From Planctomycetota bacterium (GTDB lineage: Bacteria > Planctomycetota > Brocadiia > SM23-32): a DNA stretch of 36,727 bases. Within the stretch, counting starts at the first letter, position 1. Every line of letters starts with the position of its first letter. Of this stretch, positions 8,518 to 33,928 are shown one piece after another. The position numbers and the translations under genes are program-made. Location: the NCBI GenBank assembly GCA_030628375.1, contig DAOVRD010000003.1, positions 1 through 36,727 of the forward strand, read 5' to 3'. The notes below the pieces were generated by a model that saw nothing but the letters and a program-made list of their open reading frames with translations, had not been told where the DNA came from and ran no database searches.

Positions 8518-8546
8518 ATTCTACCCGACCCGGCAGGTCTTGCCAA
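8518..8546 (-). promoter_or_regulatory. Putative sigma70 promoter for galK
   Basis: Minus strand TTGGCA-N17-TAGAAT upstream of the GTG start. Confidence 0.45.
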
Positions 8547-8710
8547 CGTTCGCACACAGGCGCACTCCCTCGGCAGCCGTAGGGGCGGTTCGGGAACTTT
8601 AGCCGCCTTGGCGGCCGCCCCCACACTCGGAGGCTACGGCCCAAGGATGAGCGTGCCCTTCCGCACAGAGAAGTCATCGTCCCCGGAGAACACCAGGTAG
8701 ACGGTCCGGC
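8523..8710. repeat. Direct repeat copy 1 (gene 3' end + REP + intergenic DNA)
   Basis: Near-identical to 10749-10926, with about 7 substitutions and one ~10 nt indel. Confidence 0.95.
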
Positions 8711-10673: not shown

Positions 10674-10748
10674 CGCGCGACCCTCCCTGACCAATGCGAA
10701 CGGCAGCATGATAGAGTCACACCGCGGCAGGGCAAAGGACACGGCCTC

Positions 10749-10926
10749 ACCCGACCCGGCAGGTCTTGCCAACGCTCACACATAGGCGCACTCCCTCGGC
10801 AGTCGTAGGGGCGGTTCGCGAACTTTAGCCGCCTTGGCGGCCGCCCCTACTACGGCCCAAGGATGAGCGTGCCCTTCCGCACAGAGAAGTCATCGTCCCC
10901 GGAGAACACCAGCTAGACGGTCCGGC
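10749..10926. repeat. Direct repeat copy 2, including a 77-nt dead copy of the serine hydrolase 3' end
   Basis: 10850-10926 matches 8634-8710 except at 10913, which turns a Tyr TAC into a TAG stop. Confidence 0.95.
10805..10850. repeat. GTAG-REP palindrome GTAGGGGCGGTTCGCGAACCGCCCCTAC interrupted by an 18-nt insert
   Basis: Removing 10823-10840 leaves a perfect 28-bp palindrome. A degenerate copy lies at ~8579-8624. Confidence 0.8.
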
Positions 10927-10937
10927 TCCAGACACGG

Positions 10938-11477
10938 TCAATGCGCGGTGACCCGTTCGAGCGCCGCTGCGTAGACGTCGTAGTCGGCGGCAGTGAAGAG
11001 CACGAAGCGCACCACCTCAAAGCAGCCCGGGTTCTGCCCAAGGAACTCCGCCACGGTGCTCAGCGCCACACCCGCCGCCTCCTCAATGGGGTAGCTGTAG
11101 ACGCCGGTGCTGATGGAGGGAAAGGCCACCGAACGCAAGCCGTTGTCCACCGCCACCTGCAGGCTGGAGCGGTAGGCGCCGGAGAGCAGTTCCGCCTCCC
11201 CGCGGGACCCTCCGCTCCAGCGCGGCCCCACGGCGTGTATGACGCGGCGTGCCGGCAGGTTGCCGCCCGTCGTGATCACGGCACTGCCGGTGGGGCACCC
11301 GCCAATGCGGCGGCATTCCTCCATGATGGCCGGCCCGCCCGCGCGGTGGATCGCACCGTCCACGCCCCCGCCGCCGCGCAGTCCGCTGTTGGCGGCGTTC
11401 ACAATGGCATCCACCTCCTGCCGGGTGATATCCCCCCGGACCAGTTCCACAGCGGCGCCACCGATATCTTTCCGCAT
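10938..11477 (-). CDS. ymdB: Macrodomain O-acetyl-ADP-ribose deacetylase
   Basis: GDIT, IVNAAN, GGGGVDGAIH, VIHAVGP and AFPSISTGVY motifs. Confidence 0.92.
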   Translation of the reverse strand: MRKDIGGAAVELVRGDITRQEVDAIVNAANSGLRGGGGVDGAIHRAGGPAIMEECRRIGGCPTGSAVITTGGNLPARRVIHAVGPRWSGGSRGEAELLSGAYRSSLQVAVDNGLRSVAFPSISTGVYSYPIEEAAGVALSTVAEFLGQNPGCFEVVRFVLFTAADYDVYAAALERVTAH

Positions 11478-11643
11478 CTTCCCCGCCTCCTTTTTGACGG
11501 ACTTAAACCGTTGCTACGCGCTAACTTACAGGACGCTTCTGCGTTCGCGTCGGCGGCCGGCCTATACTCTCAGAGAAGACCACAGGCGAGGGCGCCTGTG
11601 CTACATAAATACGACAGGATTCCGGAGGCCGGGAAGCGCCGCG

Positions 11644-12009
11644 ATGTCAGACCCGCACGAACCGCAAAGCTATTACGACCTGCTCGGCATCAAGCCCGGC
11701 GCCGCGCTCGAAGAAATCAAACGTGCCTACCGCCGCAAGGTCCGCACGTGCCACCCGGACCTGAACCGGGCCGCGGACCCCGCCCACTTCAAGCGCGTGC
11801 AGCGGGCCTACGAGGTGCTCCGCGACCCGGCCCGGCGCAAGCGCTACGACGCTGCCGCCGGGGTGGCAACGCAGAACGACTTCGCCGCGCCCGACCGCAG
11901 CAGCTTCAATCGGCTGCTCAACAACCTCTGCTCGTCCCTGCAAACCGCCCTCGACAACACCCAAAGCACGTCCCGCAAACGCCAAGGCAAGAGCCGCAGG
12001 GCGGGTTGA
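11644..12009 (+). CDS. Small stand-alone J-domain (DnaJ) protein
   Basis: YYDLLGI...EIKRAYR...HPD...AYEVLRDP..R..YD; 121 aa from ATG 11644. Confidence 0.85.
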   Translation: MSDPHEPQSYYDLLGIKPGAALEEIKRAYRRKVRTCHPDLNRAADPAHFKRVQRAYEVLRDPARRKRYDAAAGVATQNDFAAPDRSSFNRLLNNLCSSLQTALDNTQSTSRKRQGKSRRAG

Positions 12010-12084
12010 CGCTCGGCGGAGCCGGTCCGCCGCCTCACTCACCCCCCGCAAAGCCGGATAACGGACCCGCCCTCGCCCAGGCCG

Positions 12085-12588
12085 TCACTCAATCCACATG
12101 AACCAGGACTTCGGAGCCCCGCAGATGGGACACTTGTCCGGGGCCTCGTCCTCGACGGTGTTCCCGCAGCCCCTGCAGACGAACATCTTCTTTTCGGGCA
12201 GGTCCTCGCCCTTCTCCAGACTTTCGACAGCCCCGGCGTAGAGGCCGTGGTGGATCTCTTCGACCTTCAAGGCGTAATCGAAGGTGCGCTCGGCGTCCTT
12301 GTGTCCCTCTTCGCGCGCGGCGGCAACGAAGGCAGGATACATGGACTTGAACTCCTCCGCCTCACCGGCCATGGCCACCCTCAGGTTCGCCAGCGTGTCG
12401 GCGACGCCCCGCATAGCATCCAGGTGGTTCTGGGCGTGAACGGTCTCCGCCGCCGCCACAGCCCTGAACAGCCTGCCGATCATCGCGAGGCCATCTTCCT
12501 GGGCTTTCTTGCCAAAGCGCAGATACCTCTGGTTCGCCTGGCTTTCCCCCGCAAACGCCGCGTTGAGGTTGTCCTCACTGTTGGCCAT
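12085..12588 (-). CDS. rbr: Rubrerythrin
   Basis: AFAGESQA, ETVHA and EEIHH di-iron ligands plus a C-terminal rubredoxin CxxC...CPIC. Confidence 0.93.
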   Translation of the reverse strand: MANSEDNLNAAFAGESQANQRYLRFGKKAQEDGLAMIGRLFRAVAAAETVHAQNHLDAMRGVADTLANLRVAMAGEAEEFKSMYPAFVAAAREEGHKDAERTFDYALKVEEIHHGLYAGAVESLEKGEDLPEKKMFVCRGCGNTVEDEAPDKCPICGAPKSWFMWIE

Positions 12589-12759
12589 CGTACATGTCCT
12601 TCCAATCGAATAGAACGAAACAATCAGAAACAGCCCCCTGACCCGTCACCGTTCCCAGGCTAACACGCCACAGCCTGCCGTGCAAGGAACGCGTGCGCCC
12701 CCTCCGACGGCCCTCCGCGGCCTACCCGCTGAGGACCGCGCGGTTCGTGCGCGCGTGCC

Positions 12760-13407
12760 TCAGGCCGGGCGGATGTCCAGGAAGAGGTTCTCCGGCTCTT
12801 CGTGGATGCCGTGCGTGGTGAAACGAAGCGGCTTGTCGAAGCACGGGCCGTCGTGAACAAGGGAGTGATACTCGCCATTCTCCCCGCAGGGGTCTATGCC
12901 TTCCAGGCGAGTGATGTCGGCCACGAATTGCCGGTCTATGCTGCGGCCAAGGTATTCGCGGCCCAGGTGTTTCAGCCACACGGAAGTCACGACCGCCCGG
13001 AAGCCCTCTTCGACGAACTCCTCCAGCACGGCGGCGGTGTCCTGCTGCCAGAGCACGTCGAGGTACTGAAGACCCACGGCCTCCACGCGCTCGCGGTAGT
13101 ACTGGCTGACGTCCTCCAGAAGGATGTTGCCGAAGATGACGCCGCGCAGACCCGCCTCCTTCACCTTCTCCAGCGCACGGGCGAAGTCCTCGTCGAACTG
13201 ATCCGCCCGCGTGGACTCGATTATGATTTCGAGGCCCAGCGCCTCCGCCTGAGCAGAGAGCATTTCCGGGCGGTATCCATGGAACCGGACGCGGCCGTAC
13301 TCGGTCCCGTATACGTGGAAGAGGTGCGTCACACGGAGTCCCTGCGCCAGCGCTCTGTGCAGAGCCAGCGTGCTGTCCTTGCCGCCGCTAGAGGCTACGG
13401 CGTACAT
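12760..13407 (-). CDS. Diphthine-ammonia-ligase-like PP-loop ATPase (DUF71)
   Basis: SGGKDS PP-loop, FHG, GVIFGNI, LGR and DPCGENGEYH motifs. Confidence 0.88.
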   Translation of the reverse strand: MYAVASSGGKDSTLALHRALAQGLRVTHLFHVYGTEYGRVRFHGYRPEMLSAQAEALGLEIIIESTRADQFDEDFARALEKVKEAGLRGVIFGNILLEDVSQYYRERVEAVGLQYLDVLWQQDTAAVLEEFVEEGFRAVVTSVWLKHLGREYLGRSIDRQFVADITRLEGIDPCGENGEYHSLVHDGPCFDKPLRFTTHGIHEEPENLFLDIRPA

Positions 13408-13445
13408 GGGCCCCGACCCCCGAAACGAGACCGGCCCGATCGCGG

Positions 13446-14531
13446 CTAACACTCCCCCACGGCGTCGTACATGGCCACAACGTTCTCAAGCGGTATCTCC
13501 TTGAAGATGACGTTGGAAGGGCCGAGGCACAATCCCCCGCCCATGCTGCAATGCTCGATCAGATGCCGAATCTCCGCTCTGACGTCCTCGGGAGTGCCGA
13601 AGGGGAGCGTCTTCTGCAGACTCACGCATCCGTGCATGACCAGGCGGTCGCCGTGGTCCCTTTTGAACTCCGCGGGGTCCATGCACTCCGGCTGAATGGG
13701 ATTGAGGACGTCCAGGCCGCACTCGATCAGGTCCGGGACGATAGCCCGTGAATCGCCGTCGGTGTGCATCATGACGTAAGCGGCGGGATTGGCCGCCTTC
13801 AGGCCGGATATGAGGGCCTTCAACCTCCCCTTATCGAACCGACGCCAGGCGTCGGGCGACATGATCATGCTGTTCTGCATGGCCAGGTCGCCCGTGATTT
13901 GCACCATGTCCACGCCGGCCTCAACCAGCCGCACGCCCACGGCCCTCGCCCACCCATAGAGGATGTCGTAGAGGCGGTCGAGCAGCCCCGGGCGGATGGC
14001 ATAATCCATCAGGACGTTGTCCATGCCCCGCACCAGCCAGGCCGCCTTGAAGGGCTGCGTCAGCTCGCCGATCACCACCGCTCCCTCGTCCTTCAGGGCC
14101 TGGATCCTGTCCGGCAGGTCTTCGGGGACCGTGATCCATTCCTCGCGCGGGAACGGATAGAAGTCCAGGTCCTCAGGCCTCTCGGCCTCCGCCAGCGGGA
14201 GCCAGACGACGTCCTCCAGGTAGTCGCTGCCTGGATGGACCCTGACGACGCGGCCGCCGGACATAACGCGATACTGCTCGTCGTCCCTGTACTCGTCAGG
14301 CACGAGCGAGTCTATCAGTGCCTGGCACTCGTCCGGCCAGCGCACCTGCAGGCCGACCGATTCCCAGCGGTCTATCCGCAGGCGTTCGTGCGCCTCCCTG
14401 TCGGAATTGAGCCCGAGGTGCGCGAGCAACCCGTCCATGGCATCCCGGTTGATCCAGATGAAGGTCGGCACGCGGTCGGGACTGCGATGCTCAAAACAGG
14501 TGAGAATCCTTTCGCGACTCGTCATTGCCAT
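13446..14531 (-). CDS. Uroporphyrinogen decarboxylase family protein (MtaA/CmuA-like)
   Basis: MTSRERI...PDRVP, RGMDN, HTDG, LNPIQPECM, GTPEDV and ENVVAMY motifs. Confidence 0.85.
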   Translation of the reverse strand: MAMTSRERILTCFEHRSPDRVPTFIWINRDAMDGLLAHLGLNSDREAHERLRIDRWESVGLQVRWPDECQALIDSLVPDEYRDDEQYRVMSGGRVVRVHPGSDYLEDVVWLPLAEAERPEDLDFYPFPREEWITVPEDLPDRIQALKDEGAVVIGELTQPFKAAWLVRGMDNVLMDYAIRPGLLDRLYDILYGWARAVGVRLVEAGVDMVQITGDLAMQNSMIMSPDAWRRFDKGRLKALISGLKAANPAAYVMMHTDGDSRAIVPDLIECGLDVLNPIQPECMDPAEFKRDHGDRLVMHGCVSLQKTLPFGTPEDVRAEIRHLIEHCSMGGGLCLGPSNVIFKEIPLENVVAMYDAVGEC

Positions 14532-14592
14532 GATAGCTCCGCGGCAGCTTGTCCGGACCCGATCATGTCGCCGATGCTGGAGAACCCGGACA

Positions 14593-14718
14593 AAGGTGGC
14601 GCATCGTAAGGTAGCGCATCGTAGTGCGCCGAAGGTGGCGCATCGTAGTGCGCCGAAGGTGGCGCATCGTAAGGTAGCGCATCGTAGTGCGCCGAAGGTG
14701 GCGCATTGTAGTGCGCCG
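14593..14718. repeat. Intergenic tandem array of 15-nt (AAGGTRGCGCATYGT x6) and 9-nt (AGTGCGCCG x4) modules
   Basis: Order is A A B A B A A B A B, 126 nt in total. The junctions form GTAG-TGCGCC-GAAGGT-GGCGCA hairpins. Confidence 0.9.
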
Positions 14719-14774
14719 GAGGATGGAACTGCAACGGCGGGACGCGGACCGCCCAGACAGCGCTTCAGCCCGAC

Positions 14775-15719
14775 TCAGGGACCCGACTCCACGATCACGC
14801 AGTTGCGGCCGGCCTTCTTGCTGCGGTACATCAGTTCGTCCGCCCTGTCCACCACCGTCTCCAAGGTATCATCCGGGCGTGCCAGCACCGCACCGATAGA
14901 AACGGTCACGCGCACAACGTCCTCGTCTGGCTGAAGGCTGGAACTCTCCACAAGCGCGCGGCAGCGCTCTGCCACGGAGCGCAGCGTGCCCTCGTTGACG
15001 TTGACGATGAGGGCCACGAACTCCTCGCCGCCCCAGCGACCCAGGAAGTCGAACGGCCTGAGGCTCCCGACCATGGTCCTCGCGACCATCTTCAGCACTT
15101 CGTCCCCGGTATCATGGCCGTATTTGTCGTTGATCGCTTTGAAGTGATCTATGTCAACAAAGAGGACTCCGAACACCCAGCCATACCGGCGGACCTCGTC
15201 GAGCTTGCCACGGATGTTCATCTCGGTGTAGCGTCTGTTCCCCACCTCGGTCAAGGCGTCAAGGAAAGCCACCCTTTCCAGTTCGTTGATGCGCTCGACG
15301 GCGGCGATCTTCGAGCTGTTGTCGCTGAAGACCTGCACAACGCCGCTGACGACGCCATCGGATTCCAGGATGGGGGAGACACGGACCAGAACCGGCACTC
15401 GGTGCCCCTTCTTGTGGTGCAGGTAGGCTTCGAGTTCCCTGGACTGGCCGTCAGCCAGGGTTGCGGCCACCGGACACAGTCCTTCGCACAAGTTGGTCCC
15501 CTGCTCGTCCACGTGCATGAGGATGTTGTCCATGCAGCGATTTCCGAGGACCTCAGTGGCCGTGAAACCGGTGATCCGCTCCGCGCCGCGATTCCAGAAG
15601 ATAACCCGCCGGTCCCGGTCCAGGAAGTACACACCATCATAGAGATGGTTCAGCACATCGCGGTAGAACTCGTCGCCCGTTCTCAAGTCCGACCAGCTGA
15701 CCAGATGCGACCCCGACAT
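14775..15719 (-). CDS. PAS-GGDEF diguanylate cyclase (paralog 1)
   Basis: PAS (WNRGAERITG), DALT, DIDHFK.IND.YGH, RPFD I-site and GGEEF active site. Confidence 0.93.
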   Translation of the reverse strand: MSGSHLVSWSDLRTGDEFYRDVLNHLYDGVYFLDRDRRVIFWNRGAERITGFTATEVLGNRCMDNILMHVDEQGTNLCEGLCPVAATLADGQSRELEAYLHHKKGHRVPVLVRVSPILESDGVVSGVVQVFSDNSSKIAAVERINELERVAFLDALTEVGNRRYTEMNIRGKLDEVRRYGWVFGVLFVDIDHFKAINDKYGHDTGDEVLKMVARTMVGSLRPFDFLGRWGGEEFVALIVNVNEGTLRSVAERCRALVESSSLQPDEDVVRVTVSIGAVLARPDDTLETVVDRADELMYRSKKAGRNCVIVESGP

Positions 15720-15808
15720 TTCCGGTGACCACACTCCACTCACTGCACAATACCTCGAGCCAAATCCGTGCGTCCCCGCCCACAAAGCTCGCGGGATCCA
15801 GGCGCGCG

Positions 15809-16717
15809 CTACGCGCCGGATTCCACTATCACGCAGTTACGTCCCGCCTCTTTGCTCCGGTACATGAGTTCGTCCGCCCGGCCCATCAACGTTTCCAACC
15901 TGTCGTCAAGACGAGCCAGCGCCCCGCCGATGGAGACCGTAACCTGCACCAGGTCCTCACCGACCGGCAGGCCGGCCTGCTCGACAAGTCTGCAGCACCG
16001 CTCCGCCACCGATCCCAACGCCCCTTCGGGGACGTTGAGAACAATCGCAACAAATTCCTCGCCTCCCCACCGGCCCAGCAGGTCGAAGGGCCTCAGGCCT
16101 TTAGTCAGGGTTCTCACCACCATCTTCAGCGCTTCGTCGCCCGTCCCATGACCGTACCTGTCATTGACCCTCTTGAAGTGGTCTATATCAACGAAAAGCA
16201 GTCCGAACACCCAGCCGTAGCGGCGCATCTCTTCGAGCCTGGCACGAACGGTCTTCTCGATATGACGCCTGTTTCCCAGGCCCGTGAGGGAATCCAGCAG
16301 CGCCATCCCCTCCAGATCCCTGATCCTTCTCATCGCCTCCACCTTGGAGGCGTCGTTGCTGAAGACCTCGACGGCCCCGCTGATCGCGCCGTCCGGCTCG
16401 GTGACGGCACTCACCCGCACCGAGACAGGCACCCGGTGCCCCTCTTTGTGACGAATGTAGGTATCCATCCGGCGGGAGAGGCCATCGGCCAGGGTCGCCG
16501 CCACCAGTGAAAGCTCCTCCCCCACCGCCGCGCCCTGGCCATCCCGGCTGCTCAAGGCATCGTCCCAACGAGCCCCGACGATCTCTGCCGCAGTTACCCC
16601 GGTGATCCTTTCCGCCCCTTTGCTCCAGAAAAGGACCTTCCGGTCCCGGTCAACGAAGTAGACGCCGTGGCGGAGGTCATCCAACACGTTGCGATAGAAA
16701 CCGCCCTCGGTTCTCAT
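15809..16717 (-). CDS. PAS-GGDEF diguanylate cyclase (paralog 2)
   Basis: Same architecture (DSLTG, DIDHFK, RPFD, GGEEF); start placed at ATG 16717. Confidence 0.92.
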   Translation of the reverse strand: MRTEGGFYRNVLDDLRHGVYFVDRDRKVLFWSKGAERITGVTAAEIVGARWDDALSSRDGQGAAVGEELSLVAATLADGLSRRMDTYIRHKEGHRVPVSVRVSAVTEPDGAISGAVEVFSNDASKVEAMRRIRDLEGMALLDSLTGLGNRRHIEKTVRARLEEMRRYGWVFGLLFVDIDHFKRVNDRYGHGTGDEALKMVVRTLTKGLRPFDLLGRWGGEEFVAIVLNVPEGALGSVAERCCRLVEQAGLPVGEDLVQVTVSIGGALARLDDRLETLMGRADELMYRSKEAGRNCVIVESGA

Positions 16718-16766
16718 TCCGTATCCCCACGCCGATACCTTCTCTCCCCACCCCGTCAAGCCGTTG

Positions 16767-16802
16767 CACGACACGTTCCCAGAACACGACACGTTCCCAG
16801 AA
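16767..16802. repeat. Perfect 18-bp tandem duplication CACGACACGTTCCCAGAA x2 upstream of DGC paralog 2
   Basis: 16767-16784 is identical to 16785-16802. Confidence 0.9.
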
Positions 16803-16969
16803 ACGGAACAGGCGGTTATGATACAGGTTCTGGCAACGTTGCGCACGTCCCCATTGCCGAATACAGCGTCACTCTGCACGCGGGGCCACTATGCGTGCGT
16901 TCACGGGGCGGACAGCCAGCATCCCCTCCTGCCCGTGGAATGGGTCCGAGCAGGCCCGAGCCCACCACC

Positions 16970-17326
16970 TCAGCCCGGTGATTGCTGGACAGCCTCGAGC
17001 GCCTCCTCCTCGGTCGCATAGATCCTGAAGAGCTTGCTCACACGCGTGACGTCGAAGACCTCCCTGATCTGCGCATCGAGTCCGAACAGCACAAGTCTGC
17101 CGCCGTACTTCTCGACCTTGAGTTGCGCCTCAATCAAGGTGGCCAGGCCGCTGGTATCCATGAACTTGAGGCCGGTGAGGTCCAACATAAGGTTCTGCTC
17201 GCCCTTCTTGACGTACTTCATCAGCAGCCGGCGCAGATCCGGGGCGGTATGGATGTTCAGTTCGCCGGTGAGTCCAACAGCAGACACCCCTTCAACCGTC
17301 CGTTCCGTCAGGTCCATTTCCGACAT
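16970..17326 (-). CDS. STAS-domain anti-sigma factor antagonist
   Basis: LTGEL..TAPDL, LDLTGLKFMDTSGL (phospho-acceptor region) and EEEAL C-terminus. Confidence 0.9.
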   Translation of the reverse strand: MSEMDLTERTVEGVSAVGLTGELNIHTAPDLRRLLMKYVKKGEQNLMLDLTGLKFMDTSGLATLIEAQLKVEKYGGRLVLFGLDAQIREVFDVTRVSKLFRIYATEEEALEAVQQSPG

Positions 17327-17372
17327 GCGCACCGTCCTCTCGCACACAGACAGCAACGTCGCCGCTTCAGAG

Positions 17373-19433
17373 CTACATTGACAACTCCTGGGCGTTCTGG
17401 ACCAGATACGCCTTCCACGCGACGGCCGTGAATACACCTTCCTGCGGTTCGACGGGTTTGCTGGCCATTACGTCGAACATCTCTGCCCGCTGCCCCACAT
17501 CCCAGGCGAATTCCTTGTAGGCCCACAAGACCCTCACGTCGGGATCGGCTCCATCCCACAGCACACCCAGGTCGTCCGGCAGCAGGCGGGAATGCTCCAT
17601 GTAGTCCCTCACGGCGTGGTAAGCCTTATTGATAGCGGCATATTCGGGGCGCCACCAGCCTTCCAACCTGCCGTCCAGGCCGCGGGCCACGCTGTAGCGC
17701 GCGGCGTAACTGAGTCTGTTAGCACAGCCGCGGAAATACACCTCCAGCGGATCCGCACCGCTTTCGATGATCTGATCGTAGGGAAATCCCAGAACGCGGT
17801 CTCGAAACATGAACTCCCTGCCCTGCAGCACATCGTAATCCAGACTAACCCCCGGCACGACCATCCCGCCGGCGCTGGCCAGGGGGCACTTATAACCCAT
17901 GCTCTGCAGGGCCGCGATAAGGGAGACGCGCGCTCCGGCAAGCGCGCGTATCTGGCCTGCGTCCTCGTCGAAGCCCGGATCCCCTTTGGCGCCCGAGGCC
18001 GCATCCTCACCGGCCGGCAGAACCCAGTCGAACTGGTCGGCGATCTCGTCCAGTATGCTGTCCACAAAGAGCGCATCCACGCCGAGTCCTTTCCTGACCT
18101 TGCGCAGATGATCCAGCAACAGTTGGCGCGCGTCCCCATCGCGCAGCGCACGGGCCACCAGCCCGTTGCCGTCCCGGCCCTGCAAACGCCGCCAAAGATC
18201 CGGATTCTCCTCCCCCATGCTGGCGGCCACCACCCACGCCAGACAGCAGTCCCGAAGGGCAAGGGCCACCTCCATGCCCCGATGGTGGGCGTGTTGGACG
18301 AACCCCTGAGCCTGCCGAAAGGCCTTCTGCAATGACGTAGGCCGGCCCTTGCGCGGCTCCTCCGAGTCCGCCGGCGGCGTCAGAATCCTCATCAGGCCGG
18401 GCACGTGAACCCGTTTGCAGCCGCTATGGGCGACCTCGTCCAGACCCCGTTCCAGGCTCTCCAGGCACGACCCGTTGCCGCCCACCAGCCGGGTGCCCAC
18501 AACTACCCGCTCCCGCACCAGTCCGGACTGCTCGCAGTAGTCACGCTGCAACTCCTCCCGAATGGCACAGTACTGGTTGGCCCTCTCGATATCGCTCTGG
18601 GCAGCGCCCTCCGCTGTGAGCACCTGCAACGCCGGGAACTCAAGGCAGTTCCCCAGGTCGCCGCACAACTGATGCCAATGGATCACGTAATTCTGTCCGG
18701 GGTTCTTCTGGAAAAGCGACCTGCAGTGGAACGGCGCCTCGAAGGCGGTCACCAGTAGACTCTGGGGGTCGAACTGGAACGTAAACCCTTGCAGCACGCT
18801 CAACAACGGCAGGAACTGCTGCAACTGCACCGCCCGGCGGCTAGATCGGCACCACGAAGTTGTGAACCCCTCACTCTTGTTACGGAACGTCTTCTGCACT
18901 GTGTTGAACGGCCCCTGCATCCAGAAGGAATTGCCCGTAGCCCTGCCTCCCAGCTCCCACGTGGCGCGGTCGTGAATGCGATAGATGCGGTACTTGCGAG
19001 AACGGAACTTGTAGGAGTAAGAGAATCCGACGAAATCCACGCCGCCGATCGTGCGCTCGATCCCCCGGATGCGGAGGCGCAGGACGCCGCCTCTGTCCCT
19101 TTCGGCTTCCCGCTCCCAGGGACCGACGTTCCATCGGTCCTGCCCGTCGTAGCAGACCCACTCCATGCGCGCGCAACGCCTCACGTAAGGGGTCAATGAA
19201 ATAGTGAGCGAATCGGCGCCCCTGCGCATGGCCGCGAACCGGAGGCTGGTGACCTCGTACCCGTCGGGAGTCCGGATAAGGGGCATGATGGGCAGCTCGG
19301 CAGAACGCAGCTTTCGCCGCCTGATCTTGACGTTTCCCAAGCCCTGAAACGTGCTGCCCTGCTTGAGGATCTCAAGGGAGATGCCGTTGTCGAAGCTCAG
19401 TCTGTAGCTTCTTTCATGCTCTTTCAGCCGCAT
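17373..19433 (-). CDS. Large hypothetical protein, possibly a glycoside-hydrolase-like fold
   Basis: Long ORF; the start at ATG 19433 is uncertain. A beta-rich N-terminus precedes TIM-barrel-like segments (FVQHAHHRGMEV, LGVDALFVDS). Confidence 0.55.
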   Translation of the reverse strand: MRLKEHERSYRLSFDNGISLEILKQGSTFQGLGNVKIRRRKLRSAELPIMPLIRTPDGYEVTSLRFAAMRRGADSLTISLTPYVRRCARMEWVCYDGQDRWNVGPWEREAERDRGGVLRLRIRGIERTIGGVDFVGFSYSYKFRSRKYRIYRIHDRATWELGGRATGNSFWMQGPFNTVQKTFRNKSEGFTTSWCRSSRRAVQLQQFLPLLSVLQGFTFQFDPQSLLVTAFEAPFHCRSLFQKNPGQNYVIHWHQLCGDLGNCLEFPALQVLTAEGAAQSDIERANQYCAIREELQRDYCEQSGLVRERVVVGTRLVGGNGSCLESLERGLDEVAHSGCKRVHVPGLMRILTPPADSEEPRKGRPTSLQKAFRQAQGFVQHAHHRGMEVALALRDCCLAWVVAASMGEENPDLWRRLQGRDGNGLVARALRDGDARQLLLDHLRKVRKGLGVDALFVDSILDEIADQFDWVLPAGEDAASGAKGDPGFDEDAGQIRALAGARVSLIAALQSMGYKCPLASAGGMVVPGVSLDYDVLQGREFMFRDRVLGFPYDQIIESGADPLEVYFRGCANRLSYAARYSVARGLDGRLEGWWRPEYAAINKAYHAVRDYMEHSRLLPDDLGVLWDGADPDVRVLWAYKEFAWDVGQRAEMFDVMASKPVEPQEGVFTAVAWKAYLVQNAQELSM

Positions 19434-19588
19434 CCCGAACCTCGTCGGTTGTGTGCCCCCAGCCAACGGCATCCCCTTTATAGGGGGTGAGAGTCGGCTT
19501 TGCAAGAACCTTTTCGCTTTTCTACCGAACAGGCATCGCCAACTCACCCCGCCTGGCCACGATCGCCGACCGGCACGCGCACGTGCCC

Positions 19589-21460
19589 TCAGAAATCGAA
19601 CGGCGGGACGTAAGCGCCGTACCGCCCTCTCGCTGCCAGCAGTCGCTGCCGTTGAGCTTGCAGCAGTTCGAACACGATCTCCGGAGTGTCGGGCACCTGC
19701 CGACGGTAGACACTCTCGATGCGGTCTATCTTGGCCAGGTGCTCGGGGATGCGGAGCATGAACTGCCGCGCGTAGTCCTCTGCCTCGTAGTCTTTGCCCA
19801 GATGCTCGTGGAATATGTGGCGCAGGTCACGGTAAAGGGGAATCAAGCCGGTCGGCGTCTCGATGGCCCGGACCTCGCCGTGGACCCGGAGCCCCATCCA
19901 TTTCAGCCACACCTTCTTGTCCTGGGGGGCGTTCAGATAGCCACCGTCGGCCCCCTTGATGAAGTAGTTGACGCCGAACACCTTGGGCGGCTCGGCCACG
20001 TCAGCCACGAAGTCCAGGTTGGTCTGGATGTACTGCCCGATGGGGATCGAAATGAAGTCCAGATTCGACATGGGATCGAATCGGCGCACCCCCTCCGCGC
20101 CGACCGTGGCGGCGGTGGACTCCGACTCGAGGCTGGCACCCTTTGTGACGATGCCGTGCGCCCAGTCGAAGCACTCCTCCACCGGGACCCAGGTATCGGA
20201 GTCCCGCCCGCCGTAGATGATGCCGCTGACGGGCACCCCCGCGGGATCGTTGTGACGCGGATCGTAGTTGTCCAGGTGCTCCAGCCGGATCGTGTAGCGT
20301 GCATTCCTGTGGGACATGTCCACGGGATTGCTCGCCTCGTCCTCTTTTTCGGGCCACCATTCGCCGCTGTGATTGATGCCGCGCTCGGGTGCCGGCCGGC
20401 CGTTACCCAACCAGTGGGGGGCGCCCTCGTCGTCCACGAGCACGTTGGAGAATATGACCTCTCCGGGGGAAGTCAGCGCCTGCCAGATCAAGGGGTCGTC
20501 CTGGGCGTTGACATCCCTGATGATGCCGAAGATCCCGTTCTCCACATTGACGGCGCGCACCTCGCCCTCGATCTCGCGCAGATAGGCGATGTCGTCGCCC
20601 ACTATGCTCTCGCCCGGCACCATCGCAGTGGACGTCTTGCCGCAATAGCTGGGGAAGGCTCCGGTGAAGTAGGTGATGCGCCCCCCCGGCCCGTGCACTC
20701 CCATGACGAGCATGTGCTCGGCCAGCCAGCCTTCGCCGGCCGCCTTGCGGACGCACAACCGCAGGGCCAGTTTCTTCAGCCCGACCGTGTTGCCCGCGTA
20801 CTGCGTGTTCGTGCTGTAGATGATGTTGCTTTCGATATCAATGTAGATGCGGCGCTTGTCCACGTCGGCGCTGACGCCGTCCTCCAGGCGTCCTTGCGCG
20901 TGGACGAACCGGAAGAACTCCGCTGACGGACCCAGGTCCCGCAGGTTCTCATAGCCGGGGCGGTACAGGATGTCCTCGCTGTGCGCCACGTAGGAGGAGT
21001 CGGTGAGCTGCACGGCGGCAATCGAGAATACCGAACCCGCAGGCCCGAGGGTGTAGAAGCGCACGAAAAGCTCCTTGCCCGCCATACTGTTGCGCAGATA
21101 GCCGAGCACCTCCCCCAGACCTTCTTCCTTGTCAATGGACCTGACTCGCTCCCCCAGGTCCGTGCCGGGGCGAAGGAGGTACTTCGTGTTCGCCGGATCT
21201 CTTCCCTGGTCGTGGTAGCTGTCGAAGTGCAGCGTGTGCCCCGGCACGGCCAGCTCCCGCTCCTCGCCGTTCGCAATGGCAACGCGGCGTACGTAGGCCC
21301 TGTCTTCCTCGGAGTCGGTGCTCACGAATACCGACGCAGGATCGCAGAGCTTTATGAACTCAGCGACGAACTCGTCAACCCCGGGATTGCCCAGAGCGAC
21401 GAGCTTACGATAGCTGGTCTCGCCCAGCCTCTCCTGTAGCATTCGATCCGGTTCCGCCAT
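19589..21460 (-). CDS. pckG: Phosphoenolpyruvate carboxykinase (GTP)
   Basis: YAGN, WLAEHM, FPSYCGKT, VGDDIAY, HRNARY, YGGR, RFDPM and VNYF motifs. ATG 21460 follows GGAG. Confidence 0.93.
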   Translation of the reverse strand: MAEPDRMLQERLGETSYRKLVALGNPGVDEFVAEFIKLCDPASVFVSTDSEEDRAYVRRVAIANGEERELAVPGHTLHFDSYHDQGRDPANTKYLLRPGTDLGERVRSIDKEEGLGEVLGYLRNSMAGKELFVRFYTLGPAGSVFSIAAVQLTDSSYVAHSEDILYRPGYENLRDLGPSAEFFRFVHAQGRLEDGVSADVDKRRIYIDIESNIIYSTNTQYAGNTVGLKKLALRLCVRKAAGEGWLAEHMLVMGVHGPGGRITYFTGAFPSYCGKTSTAMVPGESIVGDDIAYLREIEGEVRAVNVENGIFGIIRDVNAQDDPLIWQALTSPGEVIFSNVLVDDEGAPHWLGNGRPAPERGINHSGEWWPEKEDEASNPVDMSHRNARYTIRLEHLDNYDPRHNDPAGVPVSGIIYGGRDSDTWVPVEECFDWAHGIVTKGASLESESTAATVGAEGVRRFDPMSNLDFISIPIGQYIQTNLDFVADVAEPPKVFGVNYFIKGADGGYLNAPQDKKVWLKWMGLRVHGEVRAIETPTGLIPLYRDLRHIFHEHLGKDYEAEDYARQFMLRIPEHLAKIDRIESVYRRQVPDTPEIVFELLQAQRQRLLAARGRYGAYVPPFDF

Positions 21461-21613
21461 GATCTCCAGGTTCCCTTCACGGGTGCCGTGCACGTCTGGC
21501 AGCGGGAAGCCGTACACTTCCCAAGCAAACGCCTCGGCCTCTTGCCCTCGGGGCCAGGCGCCTGCGGCGGGACGCCACGGCACGTTCTCGACCACGAGCC
21601 GTGCAATGCGGGG

Positions 21614-21641
21614 ATTCTACAGGATTTGCGGCAGCGGTCAA
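21614..21641 (-). promoter_or_regulatory. Putative sigma70 promoter for pckG
   Basis: Minus strand TTGACC-N16-TAGAAT, implying a ~145 nt 5' UTR. Confidence 0.55.
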
Positions 21642-21844
21642 GTGCGTGGAAGTGGCCGCGGGGGCGGCGATGCCGGCCGGTTCGCCCGTCACGCAGCATT
21701 TCCGAGCCGGGTCCGGCAGCGACAGGCCGCTCAAAACGCATCGAGGAGGAGCTTTTGCGTTTTAGCTTTACTTCCGGTCTCCCGTTATGTCTACAATCAA
21801 GGGGTTGTTGTCACTCTCGCCAGCGACCGGGCTCCGGGCACCAG

Positions 21845-22753
21845 ATGACGTCGGACGGCGGGGACAAACAGTGGACGGTGCTGGAACTGCTTAACTGGAC
21901 CGCTGACTACTTCAAAGGGAAGGGCATCGAGAATCCCCGGCTGAACGCCGAAGTCCTGCTGAGCAAGGTGCTGGGGCTCGAAAGGATCATGCTCTACGCC
22001 CGGTTCGAGCAGCCGGTGGCGGCGGCAGAACGAGAGGCGTTCCGCCAGATGGTCAGAAGGCGGGCCGCCCGTCAGCCCCTGCAGTACCTGGTGGGAAGGT
22101 GCGAGTTTCACGGGAGGGAGTTCGAAGTGACCCCGGCCGTCATGGTACCCAGGCAGGAGACGGAACTGGTGGTTGCGAAGTGCCTTGAGAAGATGCCGAA
22201 CGGCCGGGGCGAGCCATGGGCCGCCGACATAGGCACCGGCAGCGGCGCAATCGCCGTCACGCTGGCGGCAGAGCGCCCCCCGCTGCGGCTCGTTGCCACC
22301 GACAGCAGCGAACAGGCACTGGCAGTAGCAGCCCGCAACGCCGCGCGACACGGCGTCCAGGACCGGATCCGGTTCGCCAAGGGGGACCTGGCAGGGCCGG
22401 TCCCCGGGCACCTGCCGGCGGGCCGGGAAGGTGTTGACTTCATGGTGTGCAACCCGCCGTACGTCCCTACGGCCCAGATTGACCGCCTCCAGCCAGAGGT
22501 GCGGGATTACGAGCCCCGTGCGGCCCTCGACGGCGGCAGCGACGGGCTGGACGTCGTCCGCCGCCTCCTTCCCCAGGCGGCGCATCTCCTGATGCCCGAG
22601 GCCTGGCTCGTGCTTGAACTGGGGGAGGGGCAGGCAGAGGTCGTCAGGCAGATGCTCGGGCAGGACGCCGCCTTCGCGACGGAAAGCGTTGAGACCGCAA
22701 AGGACGCGTCAGGCTGCGAGAGGGTCCTGTGCGTTCGCAAATCCGGCCGGTGA
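21845..22753 (+). CDS. prmC: Release factor glutamine methyltransferase
   Basis: RRAARQPLQYLVG, VPRQETE, DIGTGSG, NPPY and ALDGG.DGL motifs. Confidence 0.95.
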   Translation: MTSDGGDKQWTVLELLNWTADYFKGKGIENPRLNAEVLLSKVLGLERIMLYARFEQPVAAAEREAFRQMVRRRAARQPLQYLVGRCEFHGREFEVTPAVMVPRQETELVVAKCLEKMPNGRGEPWAADIGTGSGAIAVTLAAERPPLRLVATDSSEQALAVAARNAARHGVQDRIRFAKGDLAGPVPGHLPAGREGVDFMVCNPPYVPTAQIDRLQPEVRDYEPRAALDGGSDGLDVVRRLLPQAAHLLMPEAWLVLELGEGQAEVVRQMLGQDAAFATESVETAKDASGCERVLCVRKSGR

Positions 22754-22766
22754 GGAGACGCCCCGA

Positions 22767-24065
22767 ATGGAACGTATCGTAGTGCGCGGCGGTAGGCCCC
22801 TCATCGGGACGGTCCGCATAAGCGGCGCGAAGAACGCTGCCCTGCCCATCATGGCTGCCGCCATCCTGACCGACAGCCCCTCCGTCCTGCACCGCGTCCC
22901 CCGTCTGACCGACGTGGCGACCATCAGCACAATACTGCGCGCCCTGGGCGTCTCGGCGGAATGGATAGGCCCGGACAGCCTGCGGCTGGTACCATCCCGG
23001 AACGGTCCTGTCGAGGCCCCCTCTCACCTGGTGCGCCAGATGCGAAGCAGCATCTGCGTGCTGGGCCCGCTGCTGGCGATGCGGGGAGCAGCCAGAATGG
23101 CGACGCCCGGAGGCTGCGTCATCGGCGACCGTCCCATAGATCTGCACCTGAAAGGGCTCAACGCGCTGGGGGCGCGCATCGAGATCAACGGAGCGCACAT
23201 CAGCGGCCGAGCGGACCGCCTGCGTGGCACGAGCATCGACCTGAAGGGGCCCTACGGTTCAACCGTGCTGGGGACGGCAAACGTCTTGATGGCGGCTGCC
23301 CTGGCGGAAGGCCGGACGCTGATCAAACACGCCGCCTGCGAACCCGAGGTCCAGGACCTGGCCAGGTTCCTCAACGGCTGCGGCGCCCACATCAGGGGCA
23401 TCGGCACCCCTACGCTGGTCATTGAGGGCGTCAAAAGCCTCCATGGAACGGAGCACACTATCATCCCGGACCGCATCGAGGCCGGGACCTTCCTCGCGGC
23501 CGCAGCAAGCACGGGCGGCGAGATAACGTTGGAAGGACTTCGTGCCGACCACTTGCGAGCCGTCATCGAAGCCATGGGACGGATGGGCGTGGAATTCCAC
23601 GAAGCAGAGGACGCCCTGACCGTCAGGCGGCCCGGGCCGCTGCAAGCCATTGGTTTGGCCACGTCGCCCTACCCCGGCCTGCCCACGGACATGCAGCCAC
23701 AGCTCAGTGCTCTGCTCTGCCTTACGCGGGGCATAAGCACCGTGCGAGAAGGCGTTCATCCCTGCCGGTTCACCCACGTCGGCGAGCTGCAGCGCATGGG
23801 CGCCCGCATCGTGCAGGGCGACGGGCAGACCATCATAGAGGGGGTCGGCCAACTCCACGGGGCGCACGTCACGGCCGCCGATCTGCGCGGGGGAGCGGCG
23901 CTGATGGTGGCCGCGCTCGCAGCCGACGGGGAAACAACCATCTCCGGGGTGGACCAGATAGACCGCGGGTATCAGACGCTGGAAGAGCGGCTCACAATGC
24001 TTGGGGCAGACATATCCCGCTCGGAAGCCCCGCCGGCGGAGCAGCGGCACAGGAAATCGGCCTGA
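22767..24065 (+). CDS. murA: UDP-N-acetylglucosamine 1-carboxyvinyltransferase
   Basis: SGAKNAALP, PGGCVIGDRP (catalytic Cys), IPDRIEAGT, PTDMQ and IDRGY motifs. Confidence 0.96.
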   Translation: MERIVVRGGRPLIGTVRISGAKNAALPIMAAAILTDSPSVLHRVPRLTDVATISTILRALGVSAEWIGPDSLRLVPSRNGPVEAPSHLVRQMRSSICVLGPLLAMRGAARMATPGGCVIGDRPIDLHLKGLNALGARIEINGAHISGRADRLRGTSIDLKGPYGSTVLGTANVLMAAALAEGRTLIKHAACEPEVQDLARFLNGCGAHIRGIGTPTLVIEGVKSLHGTEHTIIPDRIEAGTFLAAAASTGGEITLEGLRADHLRAVIEAMGRMGVEFHEAEDALTVRRPGPLQAIGLATSPYPGLPTDMQPQLSALLCLTRGISTVREGVHPCRFTHVGELQRMGARIVQGDGQTIIEGVGQLHGAHVTAADLRGGAALMVAALAADGETTISGVDQIDRGYQTLEERLTMLGADISRSEAPPAEQRHRKSA

Positions 24066-24135
24066 TACCCGATCGGCTCTCCCCAAGAGGTCTGGCGTAA
24101 CTCTTCTACTGCTTCCTAACGACCACCGAGGACGA

Positions 24136-24279
24136 ACCACGAAGTTCGCGAAGCTTGCCCGCCCCTGGCGGGCTTGCCCGCCTGCGGCGGGCTGACAAAG
24201 AGCACGAAGAACGGCAACAAAGCCTTTGTGGGGCGTCTTTCTGCCTGCCGTTCTTCGTGTCCTTCGTGCCCTTCGTGGT
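24136..24279. repeat. CACGAAG/CTTCGTG-type inverted repeat element containing two tandem 19-nt palindromic inserts
   Basis: ACCACGAAG (24136-24144) pairs with CTTCGTGGT (24271-24279), and CACGAAGAACGGCA (24203-24216) pairs with TGCCGTTCTTCGTG (24246-24259). The inserts occupy 24153-24190. Confidence 0.75.
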
Positions 24280-24537
24280 GACGGAAACGTTGGACGACTC
24301 TTGCCGTTCGGCTTAGGCCCCGGGCCCGCCCCGCCAGGCACACAAGACGCAGGGGCAAGGGCCCTGCGCATTCCCTCCGCGGGCTTCCAGTCTACGCTGC
24401 TGTCAATGCACCGCAAGCGGCTGAAGCCATTGCATTTTCGGCCGGGACGCCTTAAAGTAACTGAGGGCTGTGCTCGGGACCGCTGTCAAGAGAGCAGCGC
24501 AGCCGCCTTTCCTTTTCTGAGGCGCCCAAGAAAAGCC

Positions 24538-26481: not shown

Positions 26482-26541
26482 CCCCGCGCTCGCCGGGCCG
26501 GCGACGCCGGCAACTCGCTACACGGAGTATTGGAGATAACG

Positions 26542-33774: not shown

Positions 33775-33926
33775 GCCTTCGCCCCTCGGTCCGCCGTACG
33801 GCGGACCCGGGGCTTCGGCCGGCAGGCCAGCTATGCCTGCACGATGAGTGCTCAACCTTGTAAGAACACAAGGGCGAAGGCTGGGCGCCGAAGCTGGCGC
33901 GCCAGCTTGGCTCGATGCGAAGGCGG
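33772..33926. repeat. Nested palindromic element between tRNA-Glu and the GIY-YIG gene
   Basis: 13-bp inverted repeat 33772-33784/33872-33884. Perfect palindromes at 33788-33807 (20 bp) and 33891-33908 (18 bp). GCCTTCGC..GCTTCGGC is mirrored by GCCGAAGC..GCGAAGGC. Confidence 0.85.
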
Positions 33927-33928
33927 CC

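Follow-up and report, generated by a model that had tools for sequence, protein, structure and literature searches.

A GTAG-type REP with an exact 18-nt insert at one junction in a Planctomycetota genome, and its comparison with a separate heptad-hairpin element

The small dispersed repeats (SDR) of cyanobacteria, described by Elhai et al. in 2008 (Genome Res 18:1484) as very small mobile repeated elements, are reportedly hairpin repeats of about 21-27 nt that lie nested in other repeats, and their mobility is said to have been argued from filled and empty orthologous sites. Elements of the IS200/IS605 type carry two different subterminal hairpins, use guide sequences and measure hundreds of bases or more. 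GTAG REPs, as characterised in parts of Di Nocera, De Gregorio and Rocco 2013 (PMC3733652), are dispersed short GC-rich palindromes starting with GTAG, with several families per genome, and they are reported from the PVC group. For GTAG-3 and GTAG-14 the same parts describe minimal-loop units that coexist with long loops, whose termini are GC-rich and complementary and whose interior pairs with itself (PMC3733652). The E. coli REPs of types y, z1 and z2 are given as 35, 29 and 37 nt in the relevant section of PMC8266576; according to the portions of three papers that deal with recognition, they form hairpins that are recognised single-stranded by a Y1/HUH enzyme, TnpA-REP/RAYT (PMC8266576, PMC3333891, PMC3479197). 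Switching between inverted-repeat arms is described in part of PMC8604942 as inverting the spacer, and in part of PMC8794818 template switching creates hairpins.

We analysed a stretch of 36,727 nt from a Planctomycetota MAG, hereafter the window, and compared it with the genome and its relatives. REP1, a GTAG-type REP of this MAG, has the form GTAGGGGCGG-TTCGCGAA-CCGCCCCTAC, Table 1. Its GTAG pairs with CTAC, so that REP1 without an insert forms a perfect palindrome of 28 bp, tagged on both strands. Insert A (CTTTAGCCGCCTTGGCGG, 18 nt) is located only between TTCGCGAA and the right arm, in 13 out of 13 filled copies in the genome. A preliminary description of the window, whose quoted strings were all found where it had placed them, reported a 28-bp palindrome broken by 18 nt at 10805-10850, and the palindrome is indeed perfect again once 10823-10840 is removed. 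The degenerate copy it had noticed near 8597-8614 is also real: insert A is identical, and the centre TTCGGGAA and the right arm CCGCCCCCAC are altered. As single-stranded DNA, the first copy is predicted to adopt a three-way fold of -14.4 kcal/mol (z -2.8), and the second folds at -11.9 kcal/mol (z -1.4). Both copies lie inside one direct repeat of about 190 bp and therefore represent a single event; the two repeat copies align with one 10-nt indel, and one low-depth contig of run X2 weakly connects 8633 to 10850. The two ORFs that the left repeat copy overlaps were named from Pfam matches. In the window, REP1 occupies an intergenic spacer between same-strand genes.

Table 1. Features of the window discussed in the text, with their positions and strands.
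Feature	Position	Strand	Details
REP1+A copy	10805..10850	.	left arm GTAGGGGCGG 10805-10814, centre TTCGCGAA 10815-10822, insert A CTTTAGCCGCCTTGGCGG 10823-10840, right arm CCGCCCCTAC 10841-10850
REP1+A copy, slightly decayed	8579..8624	.	centre TTCGGGAA 8589-8596, insert A 8597-8614, right arm CCGCCCCCAC
~190-bp direct repeat, left copy	8523..8710	.	holds REP1+A; overlaps the beta-lactamase/DUF4185 ORF (minus strand) at its 3' end and the GHMP-kinase ORF in its start region
~190-bp direct repeat, right copy	10749..10926	.	holds REP1+A
Heptad-hairpin element	24138..24277	+	CACGAAG 24138-24144, TT, CGCGAAG 24147-24153
Unit alpha	24154-24172	+	CTTG-CCCGCC-CCT-GGCGGG, in the heptad-hairpin element
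Unit beta	24173-24191	+	CTTG-CCCGCC-TGC-GGCGGG, in the heptad-hairpin element
Second CACGAAG	24203-24209	+	in the heptad-hairpin element
CTTCGTG, three copies	24253, 24262, 24271	+	opposite arm of the heptad-hairpin element
TTCGCGAA of the second site	24145..24152	.	overlap of two tandem heptads; base 24148 is G, against A in the family
GC stem TCCGCC-GTAC-GGCGGA (TCCGCCGTACGGCGGA)	33790..33805	+	immediately after two tRNA genes, before the GIY-YIG ORF
tRNA genes, two	33609-33679, 33697-33771		upstream of the GC stem
GIY-YIG ORF, 107 aa	33848-34171		downstream of the GC stem

A census of the junctions covered 57 centres that are of REP1 type on one side or both. Among these, 28 are empty (arm/arm) and 13 contain A: nine with an arm on the other side, two with the other arm degenerate or missing, one with insert B and one with its longer form B'. 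The others comprise one centre with B only, ten that are single-arm or at a contig edge, and five with other interiors. Allowing up to three mismatches, insert A has 13 matches in REP1 and four unrelated three-mismatch chance matches elsewhere in the genome; at this threshold the genome holds no solo or donor copy, and no A-A double copy was seen. Intermediates between the empty form and the exact 18-nt filled form were not found, nor was a 6-nt-only form when searched for. With one junction, 13 filled and 28 clean empty copies, the REP1 insert pattern is beyond chance. The exact TTCGCGAA occurs at 111 sites in the genome, 47 inside REP1 and 64 outside; A is present at none of the 64, and a CCGCC hairpin follows on the 3' side only at the window site 24145. 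The idea of TTCGCGAA as a defined general target is thus contradicted. The earlier observation is sound for the REP1 insert, whereas the shared target word is no more than chance. Filled and empty hosts and fixed polarity support its interpretation in part.

Insert B is a hairpin of 21 nt, unrelated to A, at the same REP1 junction and with the same polarity. In two copies (A+B and A+B') A and B lie on opposite sides of one centre, and B' is B plus 18 nt, arranged X-AAA-X'-T-X with X = GCGAAGC. The presence of B at the junction of A suggests a recurrent process there rather than one accident. REP1 arms also enclose other interiors, in G000 GGCGCGCC (n=17) and a 21-nt interior with a TCCCGC-AGTT-GCGGGA hairpin (n=4), and in G054 GGTWACC, GTTTWAAAC and TTCGCGAA. 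Empty REP1 is found in four out of 60 relatives (G003, G022, G028, G054), and filled REP1+A in none of the 60 searched.

Comparison of orthologous loci with a population that is 92-96% identical gave two informative pairs. At L021 and C48 alike the REP is filled, but centre and A are in opposite orientation, and next to the REP C48 has a further module of 59 nt. L025 and C267 differ by the presence or absence of an entire 145-nt MITE, composed of module a, REP1+A and module a'. Neither pair differs by A alone, which does not support the preliminary description's idea of a mobile unit. Copies of MITE-A that are almost identical have REP1 filled in some cases and empty in others, at an unchanged position. 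C20 and C209 have the same left module at 69 of 70 bases, yet the insert of C209 is flipped and departs from that of C20 at 2 of its 18 bases; both changes are shared with C289, whose flanks are unrelated. Because insert and flank histories are discordant, simple vertical co-inheritance is insufficient and some transfer among REP1 copies is needed, for which only 10-18 bp of homology are usable across REP1 contexts.

At the second site, two 19-mers had been reported as inserts directly after TTCGCGAA at 24145-24152. The position is right, but the 19-mers (24154-24191) belong, as units in tandem, to a conserved heptad-plus-hairpin element and are not TTCGCGAA inserts, and the site has this word only through a single-base accident. 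Six copies of the heptad family bear hairpins; four have TTCACGAA, one TCCACGAA and one, the window copy, TTCGCGAA. In contigs over the window, G>A at 24148 accounts for 24.6 of 34.8 depth in run X1 and 4 of 4 in run X4, possibly from other family copies. Copies of the family have zero to three units after CACGAAG or CACGAGA (C148 is a clear empty copy), so empty versions exist for this host as for REP1, 28 empty against 13 filled there, and in both hosts the small unit has constant polarity, directly 3' of a CGAA-type word, as had been proposed. Outside the loop, units alpha and beta agree at 16 out of 16 positions; within it, all three bases differ. The predicted DNA fold of the element is -49.6 kcal/mol (z -6.9), with none of 200 shuffles as good, and Rfam gives no family at gathering score.

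The junction of ACGRRG with CTTGCCCGCC (both strands, at most one mismatch) is matched 13-32 times each in G020, G022 and G028. It is found in 17 out of 30 family genomes, most with one or two matches, no more than the control, a reversed pattern with 0-2 matches per genome. Among the fetched loci, 29 out of 40 have CTTG and CCCGCC-N2-6-GGCGRG after purine-rich short repeats, and across genera stem and leader are constant, loops and neighbouring heptads variable. The genera sharing the junction are about 68-77% identical in DNA, in matching stretches only. That three or more further genera of the family have the junction, and have it many times, speaks against a recent landing at 24145. Upstream of unrelated CCGCC hairpins, CRCGAR within 16 nt is found in 3 of about 390 flanks. 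The stem TCCGCCGTACGGCGGA, mentioned earlier as related, does lie beside the GIY-YIG gene, but it has no CGAA or CTT leader and was rejected as a member of either repeat family.

We lean, with a little more confidence than doubt, to the reading that insert A is a long-loop variant of the GTAG-type REP1 that arose once and was then copied passively with REP1. The outer arms (GTAGGGGC...GCCCCTAC) would be conserved and the inner part free to vary, and A would be one of the inner variants, a long loop with a small GC hairpin of its own. A most likely arose in the lineage common to this genome and the 92-96% identical population, probably by a replication template switch or by capture of the family's common CTTG-CCCGCC-loop-GGCGGG module. 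Its spread would be passive, by REP propagation and by the 145-nt MITE-like composites with REP1 inside; centre and A may have flipped through switching between the 10-bp inverted arms, and short-patch recombination or template switching may have carried A from one REP1 copy to another. We infer the single origin, its mode and the shuffling mechanism from the patterns above. The genome encodes an IS200 TnpA (134.7 bits), and two proteins pass the profile of the REP-associated tyrosine transposase at a cut-off of 80 bits (C70, 93.4 bits; C125, 89.5 or 86.1 bits). No RAYT gene, as a candidate for the assumed propagation machinery, was found adjoining REP1. This absence counts against the long-loop reading, as do the length of always exactly 18 nt, insert B and the discordance of insert and flank. 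The resemblance of A to the heptad unit (CTT leader, CCGCC stem, position 3' of CGAA) also counts against it.

It is unlikely, in our judgement, that A, the heptad units and perhaps B are autonomous micro-elements, single-stranded hairpins moved by an HUH/Y1 enzyme (RAYT or IS200-like) and inserted, always the same way round, on the 3' side of a CGAA(G) word that the host hairpin exposes. This is essentially the idea of the preliminary description with the target redefined. Since hosts with and without the unit, fixed polarity, insert B and discordant histories were all found, that idea is not refuted. It would account for the junction and polarity shared by all 13 A copies and all B copies, for the two centres flanked by A and B, for heptad copies with zero to three units after CACGAAG or CACGAGA and for insert variants discordant with their flanks; the TnpA and the two RAYT-profile proteins offer candidate enzymes, and outside the two families few CCGCC hairpins are preceded by CRCGAR (3 of about 390). 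However, the genome has no solo or donor A and no A-A double copy, none of the 64 outside TTCGCGAA sites is filled with A, neither informative pair differs by the unit only, and a junction kept across genera of about 68-77% identity in matching stretches is more in keeping with a module fixed long ago than with continuing insertion. Moreover, IS200/IS605 elements use two distinct ends, which a single hairpin of 5-6 bp does not have.

Less likely still is that nothing moved, each insert (A, B, B', alpha beside beta) being made separately by replication template switching, for which hairpin-forming palindromes would be hot spots, with small inverted repeats repeatedly created or extended at the loop-stem junction and copy differences due to later duplication of the host repeats. 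The structure of B' agrees with this, as does A in its context, X-TT-X'-X with X = CCGCC, and the inversion of centre and A between orthologous loci; template switching is reported to make hairpins and to invert spacers in the parts of PMC8794818 and PMC8604942, respectively, that concern them. However, no local template exists for the leaders CTTTAG and TACTA, and an identical 18-mer with shared variants in unrelated flanks argues that most copies are not independent local events. The identity of alpha and beta at 16 non-loop positions would fit, yet a difference at exactly three loop bases is unlike duplication and drift (chance about 1 in 1000). We consider it improbable that selection keeps the hairpins as a putative functional RNA or DNA structure, such as 3'-end protection or a protein-binding site, the CTT-leader/CCGCC-stem likeness then reflecting convergence or common function and not common movement. 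Constant stems and leaders beside variable loops and heptads, the strong fold of the heptad element (z -6.9) and the intergenic position of the window REP1 between same-strand genes point that way, and roles in termination and mRNA stability are commonly proposed for REPs in part of PMC3733652. Against selection, none of the RNA runs contained the stretch, Rfam gives no match, A flips relative to its flanks, which would alter an RNA hairpin loop and its context, and function leaves the presence of the unit in different hosts unexplained.

Among the known systems, the E. coli REPs and their RAYT resemble the present case in having subtypes of differing length in one genome, and RAYT-like proteins are encoded here; the E. 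coli REPs, as far as the portions of the cited work on recognition and cleavage go, are imperfect palindromes whose bulge is needed for recognition, and their cleavage site, CT/CA, lies outside the hairpin and not where loop and stem meet. The inversion of centre and A between 10-bp arms and the X-loop-X'-X order in A and B' are reminiscent of template switching, for which the parts of PMC8604942 and PMC8794818 concerned describe clusters of point mutations and spacer flips, whereas here an identical 18-nt block occurs at 13 loci. Single-strand peel-and-paste IS200/IS605 elements would share with the units here an oriented insertion immediately 3' of a short conserved word beside a hairpin, and the lack of a target duplication; the one-hairpin 18-nt unit has no such ends or guides. 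The SDR are the nearest precedent for a mobile unit below 30 nt, but the units here are shorter (18-19 nt), confined to two host repeats and without filled/empty orthologues in the two pairs. REP1 differs from the GTAG REPs in that GTAG pairs with CTAC, its long form exceeds the short one by a single, exact block of 18 nt whose junction is off-centre, another kind of block (B) occupies the mirror junction and no flanking RAYT was found. The earlier claim that there is no characterised mechanism or precedent was nevertheless too strong, since short and long GC-rich loops coexist in GTAG REPs (in the parts of PMC3733652 on loop variants); empty REP1 beside REP1+A matches that pattern, and the GGCGCGCC-type 21-nt-interior variant also fits it.

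The repeat REP1 occurs in the genome of the window, G000 (3.9 Mb in 412 contigs, 63.9% G+C, 86% complete; its contigs carry C numbers), in two sharp states that lie one exact 18-nt hairpin block apart, with a second block type at the mirror junction. The named proteins nearest to the PEPCK of G000 are Planctomycetes/Planctomycetota MAG entries, with an identity of about 75%. The centre of the repeat, TTCGCGAA, has 111 exact sites in the genome; a REP1 arm or an insert adjoins 47 of them on one or both sides, and 64 have neither. With one mismatch allowed in the centre we counted 57 REP1-type centres, spread over more than 40 contigs. In 28 of the 57 the repeat is empty, with an arm on both sides, and in 13 it bears the 18-nt block, insert A: nine have A on one side and an arm on the other, in two the other arm is degenerate or missing (C209, C278), one has A and the second block, insert B, and one has A and a longer form of it, B'. 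A single centre carries B without A. The other 15 are ten single-arm or contig-edge copies and five with different interiors. Both filled and empty forms had been expected in the preliminary description; for REP1 the observation is real and stronger than was known then, given 13 filled against 28 empty copies and the second type of insert.

The presence or absence of A is always an exact 18 nt. A search of G000 with the 18-mer, allowing up to four mismatches, gave 80 matches, of which the 12 with 0-2 mismatches and one of the five with three (on C289) are the 13 REP1 copies; the remaining matches are unrelated sequences, and insert A was not found outside the junction of centre and right arm. 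An intermediate with the 6-nt leader alone was not found in the search either, its four one-mismatch matches being unrelated. Insert B (TACTACTCTGCGAAGCACGAG, 21 nt) has the same junction and polarity as A, and stands opposite A across the REP1 centre in two copies. B' (C11:15563, with a left-truncated copy on C119) is B plus a further 18 nt and follows the pattern X-AAA-X'-T-X, where X is GCGAAGC. On C11, four REP1 units within 1.3 kb (14440-15720) are in four states (A, B, B'+A and empty), and C130:1-280 holds three units at a spacing of about 125 nt. At C278:138-173 (A) and C119:9520 (B') the right arm is present and the left arm absent; these copies are truncated or possibly progenitors.

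Features of the window that bear on REP1 and on the heptad-hairpin element
Feature	Position	Composition	Basis
REP1 with insert A	10805-10850	GTAGGGGCGG, TTCGCGAA, CTTTAGCCGCCTTGGCGG, CCGCCCCTAC	sequence read
Second REP1 with insert A	8579-8624	centre TTCGGGAA, arm CCGCCCCCAC, otherwise as 10805-10850	sequence read
Direct repeat, ~190 bp	8523-8710 and 10749-10926	one 10-nt indel between copies	
TTCGCGAA, followed by two 19-nt units	24145-24152		sequence read
Heptad-hairpin element	24138-24277	CACGAAG-TT-CGCGAAG, two CTTG-CCCGCC-(CCT/TGC)-GGCGGG units, CACGAAG, spacer, three CTTCGTG (opposite arm)	
Stem TCCGCCGTACGGCGGA	33790	after two tRNA genes, before a 107-aa GIY-YIG ORF	

All strings quoted in the preliminary description were read in the sequence where it had placed them, and removal of the 18 nt of insert A from 10805-10850 leaves a perfect 28-bp palindrome. 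The REP1 copies at 8579 and 10805 are not independent, since both lie within one ~190-bp direct repeat, whose copies bracket a 712-aa beta-lactamase/DUF4185 ORF (8634-10772). The right copy of this repeat also holds a ~70-nt duplicate of the 3' end of the ORF. A contig of sequencing run X2 joins 8633 to 10850 (depth 2.8, side 26; weak), which would fit a strain that lacks the gene and one of the repeats. The claim of two independent sites that share TTCGCGAA as a target therefore fails: the REP1 pair of the window counts as one event, and the octamer at 24145 is a one-base variant of the form usual in the heptad family. The stem that had been noticed beside the GIY-YIG gene is present at 33790, but its kinship to the inserts did not hold, as neither the CGAA word nor the CTT leader lies upstream. 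In this region (33609-34171) two tRNA genes are followed by a GC-rich extended hairpin and a small stand-alone GIY-YIG ORF; an Rfam search of the window gave two tRNAs and nothing else.

As single-stranded DNA the heptad-hairpin element has a strong fold (-49.6 kcal/mol, z -6.9), one long hairpin that bears a pair of side hairpins. Family copies in G000 hold no unit (C148), one (C269, C363, C227), two (C389, which is the contig of the window, C218, C271, C277) or three (C398); on C73 and C307 there are inverted heptads but no unit, and these are putative homologues only. Immediately ahead of the first unit, the eight bases read TTCACGAA in four of six copies, TCCACGAA in one and TTCGCGAA in one, that of the window. 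Contigs of the sequencing runs read the base A at 24148, and may derive from other family copies. A reading of the element as a conserved protein N-terminus was rejected, with no steady reading frame in 11 copies.

Matches to the junction ACGAAGCTTGYCCGCC, with at most one mismatch, are found in 24 of 61 genomes and in 17 of the 30 in the family. About eight genomes have four or more (G028 32, G022 15, G020 13, G000 12, G002 7, G014 5, G024 5, G003 4), and most other matching genomes have one or two, which is not above a reversed-pattern control (0-2 per genome). In five relatives, CTTG with CCCGCC-N2-6-GGCGRG comes straight after purine-rich short tandem repeats at 29 of 40 loci, and the other 11 mostly have longer loops or are truncated. 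The preceding repeats are genome-specific (CACGAAG, CACGGAG, GACGAGG, ATGAAG) and the loops highly variable, while the stem and CTTG are constant. At least three further genera of the family have numerous copies of this repeat (loci L046-L085), which has no match in Rfam. The element at 24138-24277 is a conserved module common to several genera of the family, and not an insertion at TTCGCGAA.

Insert A and the heptad unit are alike in their CTT-type leader, their CCGCC/GGCGG stem and their position 3' of CGAA. The exact 18-mer occurs in REP1 only, and the heptad family has a look-alike unit with a CTT leader and a CCGCC stem. Among 404 strand-specific flanks of CCGCC-N2-4-GGCGG in G000, 17 have CRCGAR at most 16 nt upstream: seven are REP1 with A, seven belong to the heptad family and three are unrelated. 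The heptad copy on C277 has a TTTA leader. Given this tally and the leader of C277, the likeness is unlikely to be pure chance. Noticed post hoc, it could reflect the capture of a module into the REP1 loop, a common function or a common insertion process, and the comparison of the two sequences is suggestive of homology.

REP1 is found alone and within bigger units. One composite, MITE-A, has about 145 nt and consists of module a, REP1 and module a', and a second is built with modules b and b'. Some copies of MITE-A are cut at varied left points (C345, L023, C41, C121, L020; L numbers denote fetched loci), and in others the right side has been replaced (C191, C72, C44, C366:1290). A metagenome scan gave five contigs of a related population with REP1 and A, with flanks 92-96% identical to G000, and two of these five loci have usable orthologues there. 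Between L021 and C48, filled in both, the centre and A are inverted relative to the common flanks, and C48 has an extra 59-nt module beside the REP. Between L025 (517-661) and C267 (near 19355) the whole 145-nt MITE-A with REP1 and A is cleanly present or absent. The ends of this composite are alike in inverted orientation, as in a MITE (alignments judged by eye), and its target duplication is ambiguous, either CT or CTCG. According to these two pairs, A can ride along in bigger mobile units, and the asymmetric core can turn round within its 10-bp inverted arms; template switching between inverted-repeat arms is reported to give such flips (PMC8604942).

A filled/empty difference by the unit alone at orthologous sites, which the idea of a mobile hairpin had called for, is seen in neither of the two informative pairs (one flipped core, one whole MITE). 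L020/C44 and L022/C98 are uninformative for A, owing to diverging flanks or to ~1.85 kb of other DNA in G000, and L023 has no counterpart in G000. Three genomes of the same genus are 68-77% identical in matching stretches, too diverged for intergenic comparison. The contigs of four runs on 8200-28199 stop at repeats; none of those listed bridges 10805-10850, and they are mute on empty alleles. They contain no indels across 8200-28199, though they break at repeats.

The left modules of the MITE-A copies on C20 and C209 are the same at 69 of 70 bases. C20 carries the canonical A, C209 a flipped variant with 2 of 18 bases different, and ten other MITE-A copies are empty. The two changes of C209 are also present in C289, whose flanks are of the other composite type. 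As these changes are common across flank types, the insert variants and the flanks have discordant histories, and simple co-inheritance of A with its flanks does not fit the sequences of C20, C209 and C289. Taken with the exact 18-nt states, the discordance calls for a transfer of the REP1 interior, or of A itself, between copies that share only 10-18 bp per side. We cannot tell short-patch template switching or conversion, whole-unit replacement and true insertion of the 18-mer apart as the mover. The phylogeny of MITE-A flanks, examined for a single origin of A, does not set filled copies apart from empty ones: those in G000 agree at 62-70 of 70 bases, with no substitution that parts the two states.

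Autonomous mobility of the 18-19-nt hairpin unit is in our judgement unlikely. Its fullest form, which we consider improbable, is that the CTT leader and the 5-6-bp CCGCC/GGCGG hairpin make up a self-standing single-strand micro-transposon of 18-19 nt, the smallest known, pasted by a host Y1/HUH enzyme 3' of a CGAA(G) word that a loop or arm of another hairpin repeat exposes. Such a unit would account for insert A in REP1, for the zero to three heptad units and, with another cargo, for B. The nearest precedent for so tiny a mobile unit is the small dispersed repeats of cyanobacteria, reportedly described by Elhai et al. in 2008. In IS200/IS605, two subterminal hairpins and guides go with a TnpA that cuts 3' of a target word, whereas here each unit has one 5-6-bp hairpin. 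G000 has an IS200-type TnpA (C349, 134.7 bits) and six matches to the model of REP-associated tyrosine transposases (RAYT), of which two pass the cut-off of 80 bits (C70, 93.4 bits; C125, 86.1-89.5 bits); a RAYT-like 223-aa ORF on C405 (L002 1117-2004) is just under it at ~73.7-75 bits. The 2.5 kb on either side of each of the five Pfam Y1_Tnp matches (C349, C405, C125, C70, C352) hold no REP1. A RAYT flanked by REP1 (a REPtron) was not found in the 412 contigs, among which one may have escaped the search; the C70 gene is at a contig end. The ORF on C405 is flanked by 88-nt inverted repeats of another family, each with a AAAATGGGGACAGGCACC...-type hairpin, and the best RAYT of the relative G054 by GTAGGGTGCG-type repeats, not REP1. 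The 88-nt repeat is also inserted in the heptad element of C363 and occurs twice on C91 beside TTCGCGAA. RAYT-like matches are so widespread (50 of 61 genomes) that their co-occurrence with the repeats is uninformative.

The best-supported reading takes filled REP1 as a GTAG-type REP in a long-loop version, spreading and flipping with its host repeat, and the heptad-hairpin element as a conserved module, probably unrelated to it though similar-looking. REP1 is a short, perfect palindrome of 28 bp with 22 exact copies, and when filled it folds so that the outer stem has 9-10 bp. It is dispersed, with its 57 centres, the array on C130 and the composites with modules a/a' and b/b'. Most copies have GTAG at the arm start, with the variants GTAA, GTGG and GTAC, and at C70:9066 and C160:37692 (two cases only) a compensatory change in the stem replaces GGGCGG...CCGCCC by GGGCGC...GCGCCC. 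The arms GTAGGGGC...GCCCCTAC of G000 also enclose ACGGCGCGCCGT (17 copies and one-base variants) and, in four copies, an interior of 21 nt that contains a separate hairpin, TCCCGC-AGTT-GCGGGA. The centres of REPs with GTAGGGGC arms are 8-bp palindromes (TTCGCGAA, GGCGCGCC; the GGCGGCCGCC form on C356). G054, which belongs to another family within the same class, has GGTWACC, GTTTWAAAC or TTCGCGAA between the arms GTAGGGGCGG...CCGCCCCTAC; this genome uses the REP arms of G000 around AT-rich centres. Of the 60 relatives, four have empty REP1 (one site in G028 and 4-9 in each of G003, G022 and G054), and none has filled REP1. The 19-mer has one match in the species-genome collection, in coding DNA and with no REP arms, which we take as chance.

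Little is understood so far about the ways in which REP families spread and become diverse. REP1 is a compact natural system in which to ask whether REP interiors are exchanged by template switching or tiny hairpins move alone, and the latter, if true, would lower the known size limit of a mobile DNA unit. For now, the finding is chiefly a record of REPs with variant loops and of a conserved heptad-hairpin repeat, both from an uncultured lineage of Planctomycetota. The alternative interiors of REP1 match the published account of GTAG-tagged REPs (PMC3733652). The GTAG of REP1 pairs with CTAC at the opposite end, whereas the tag of the family described in that account is unpaired. Size classes are also known from E. 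coli, where the REPs y, z1 and z2 have 35, 29 and 37 nt (PMC8266576).
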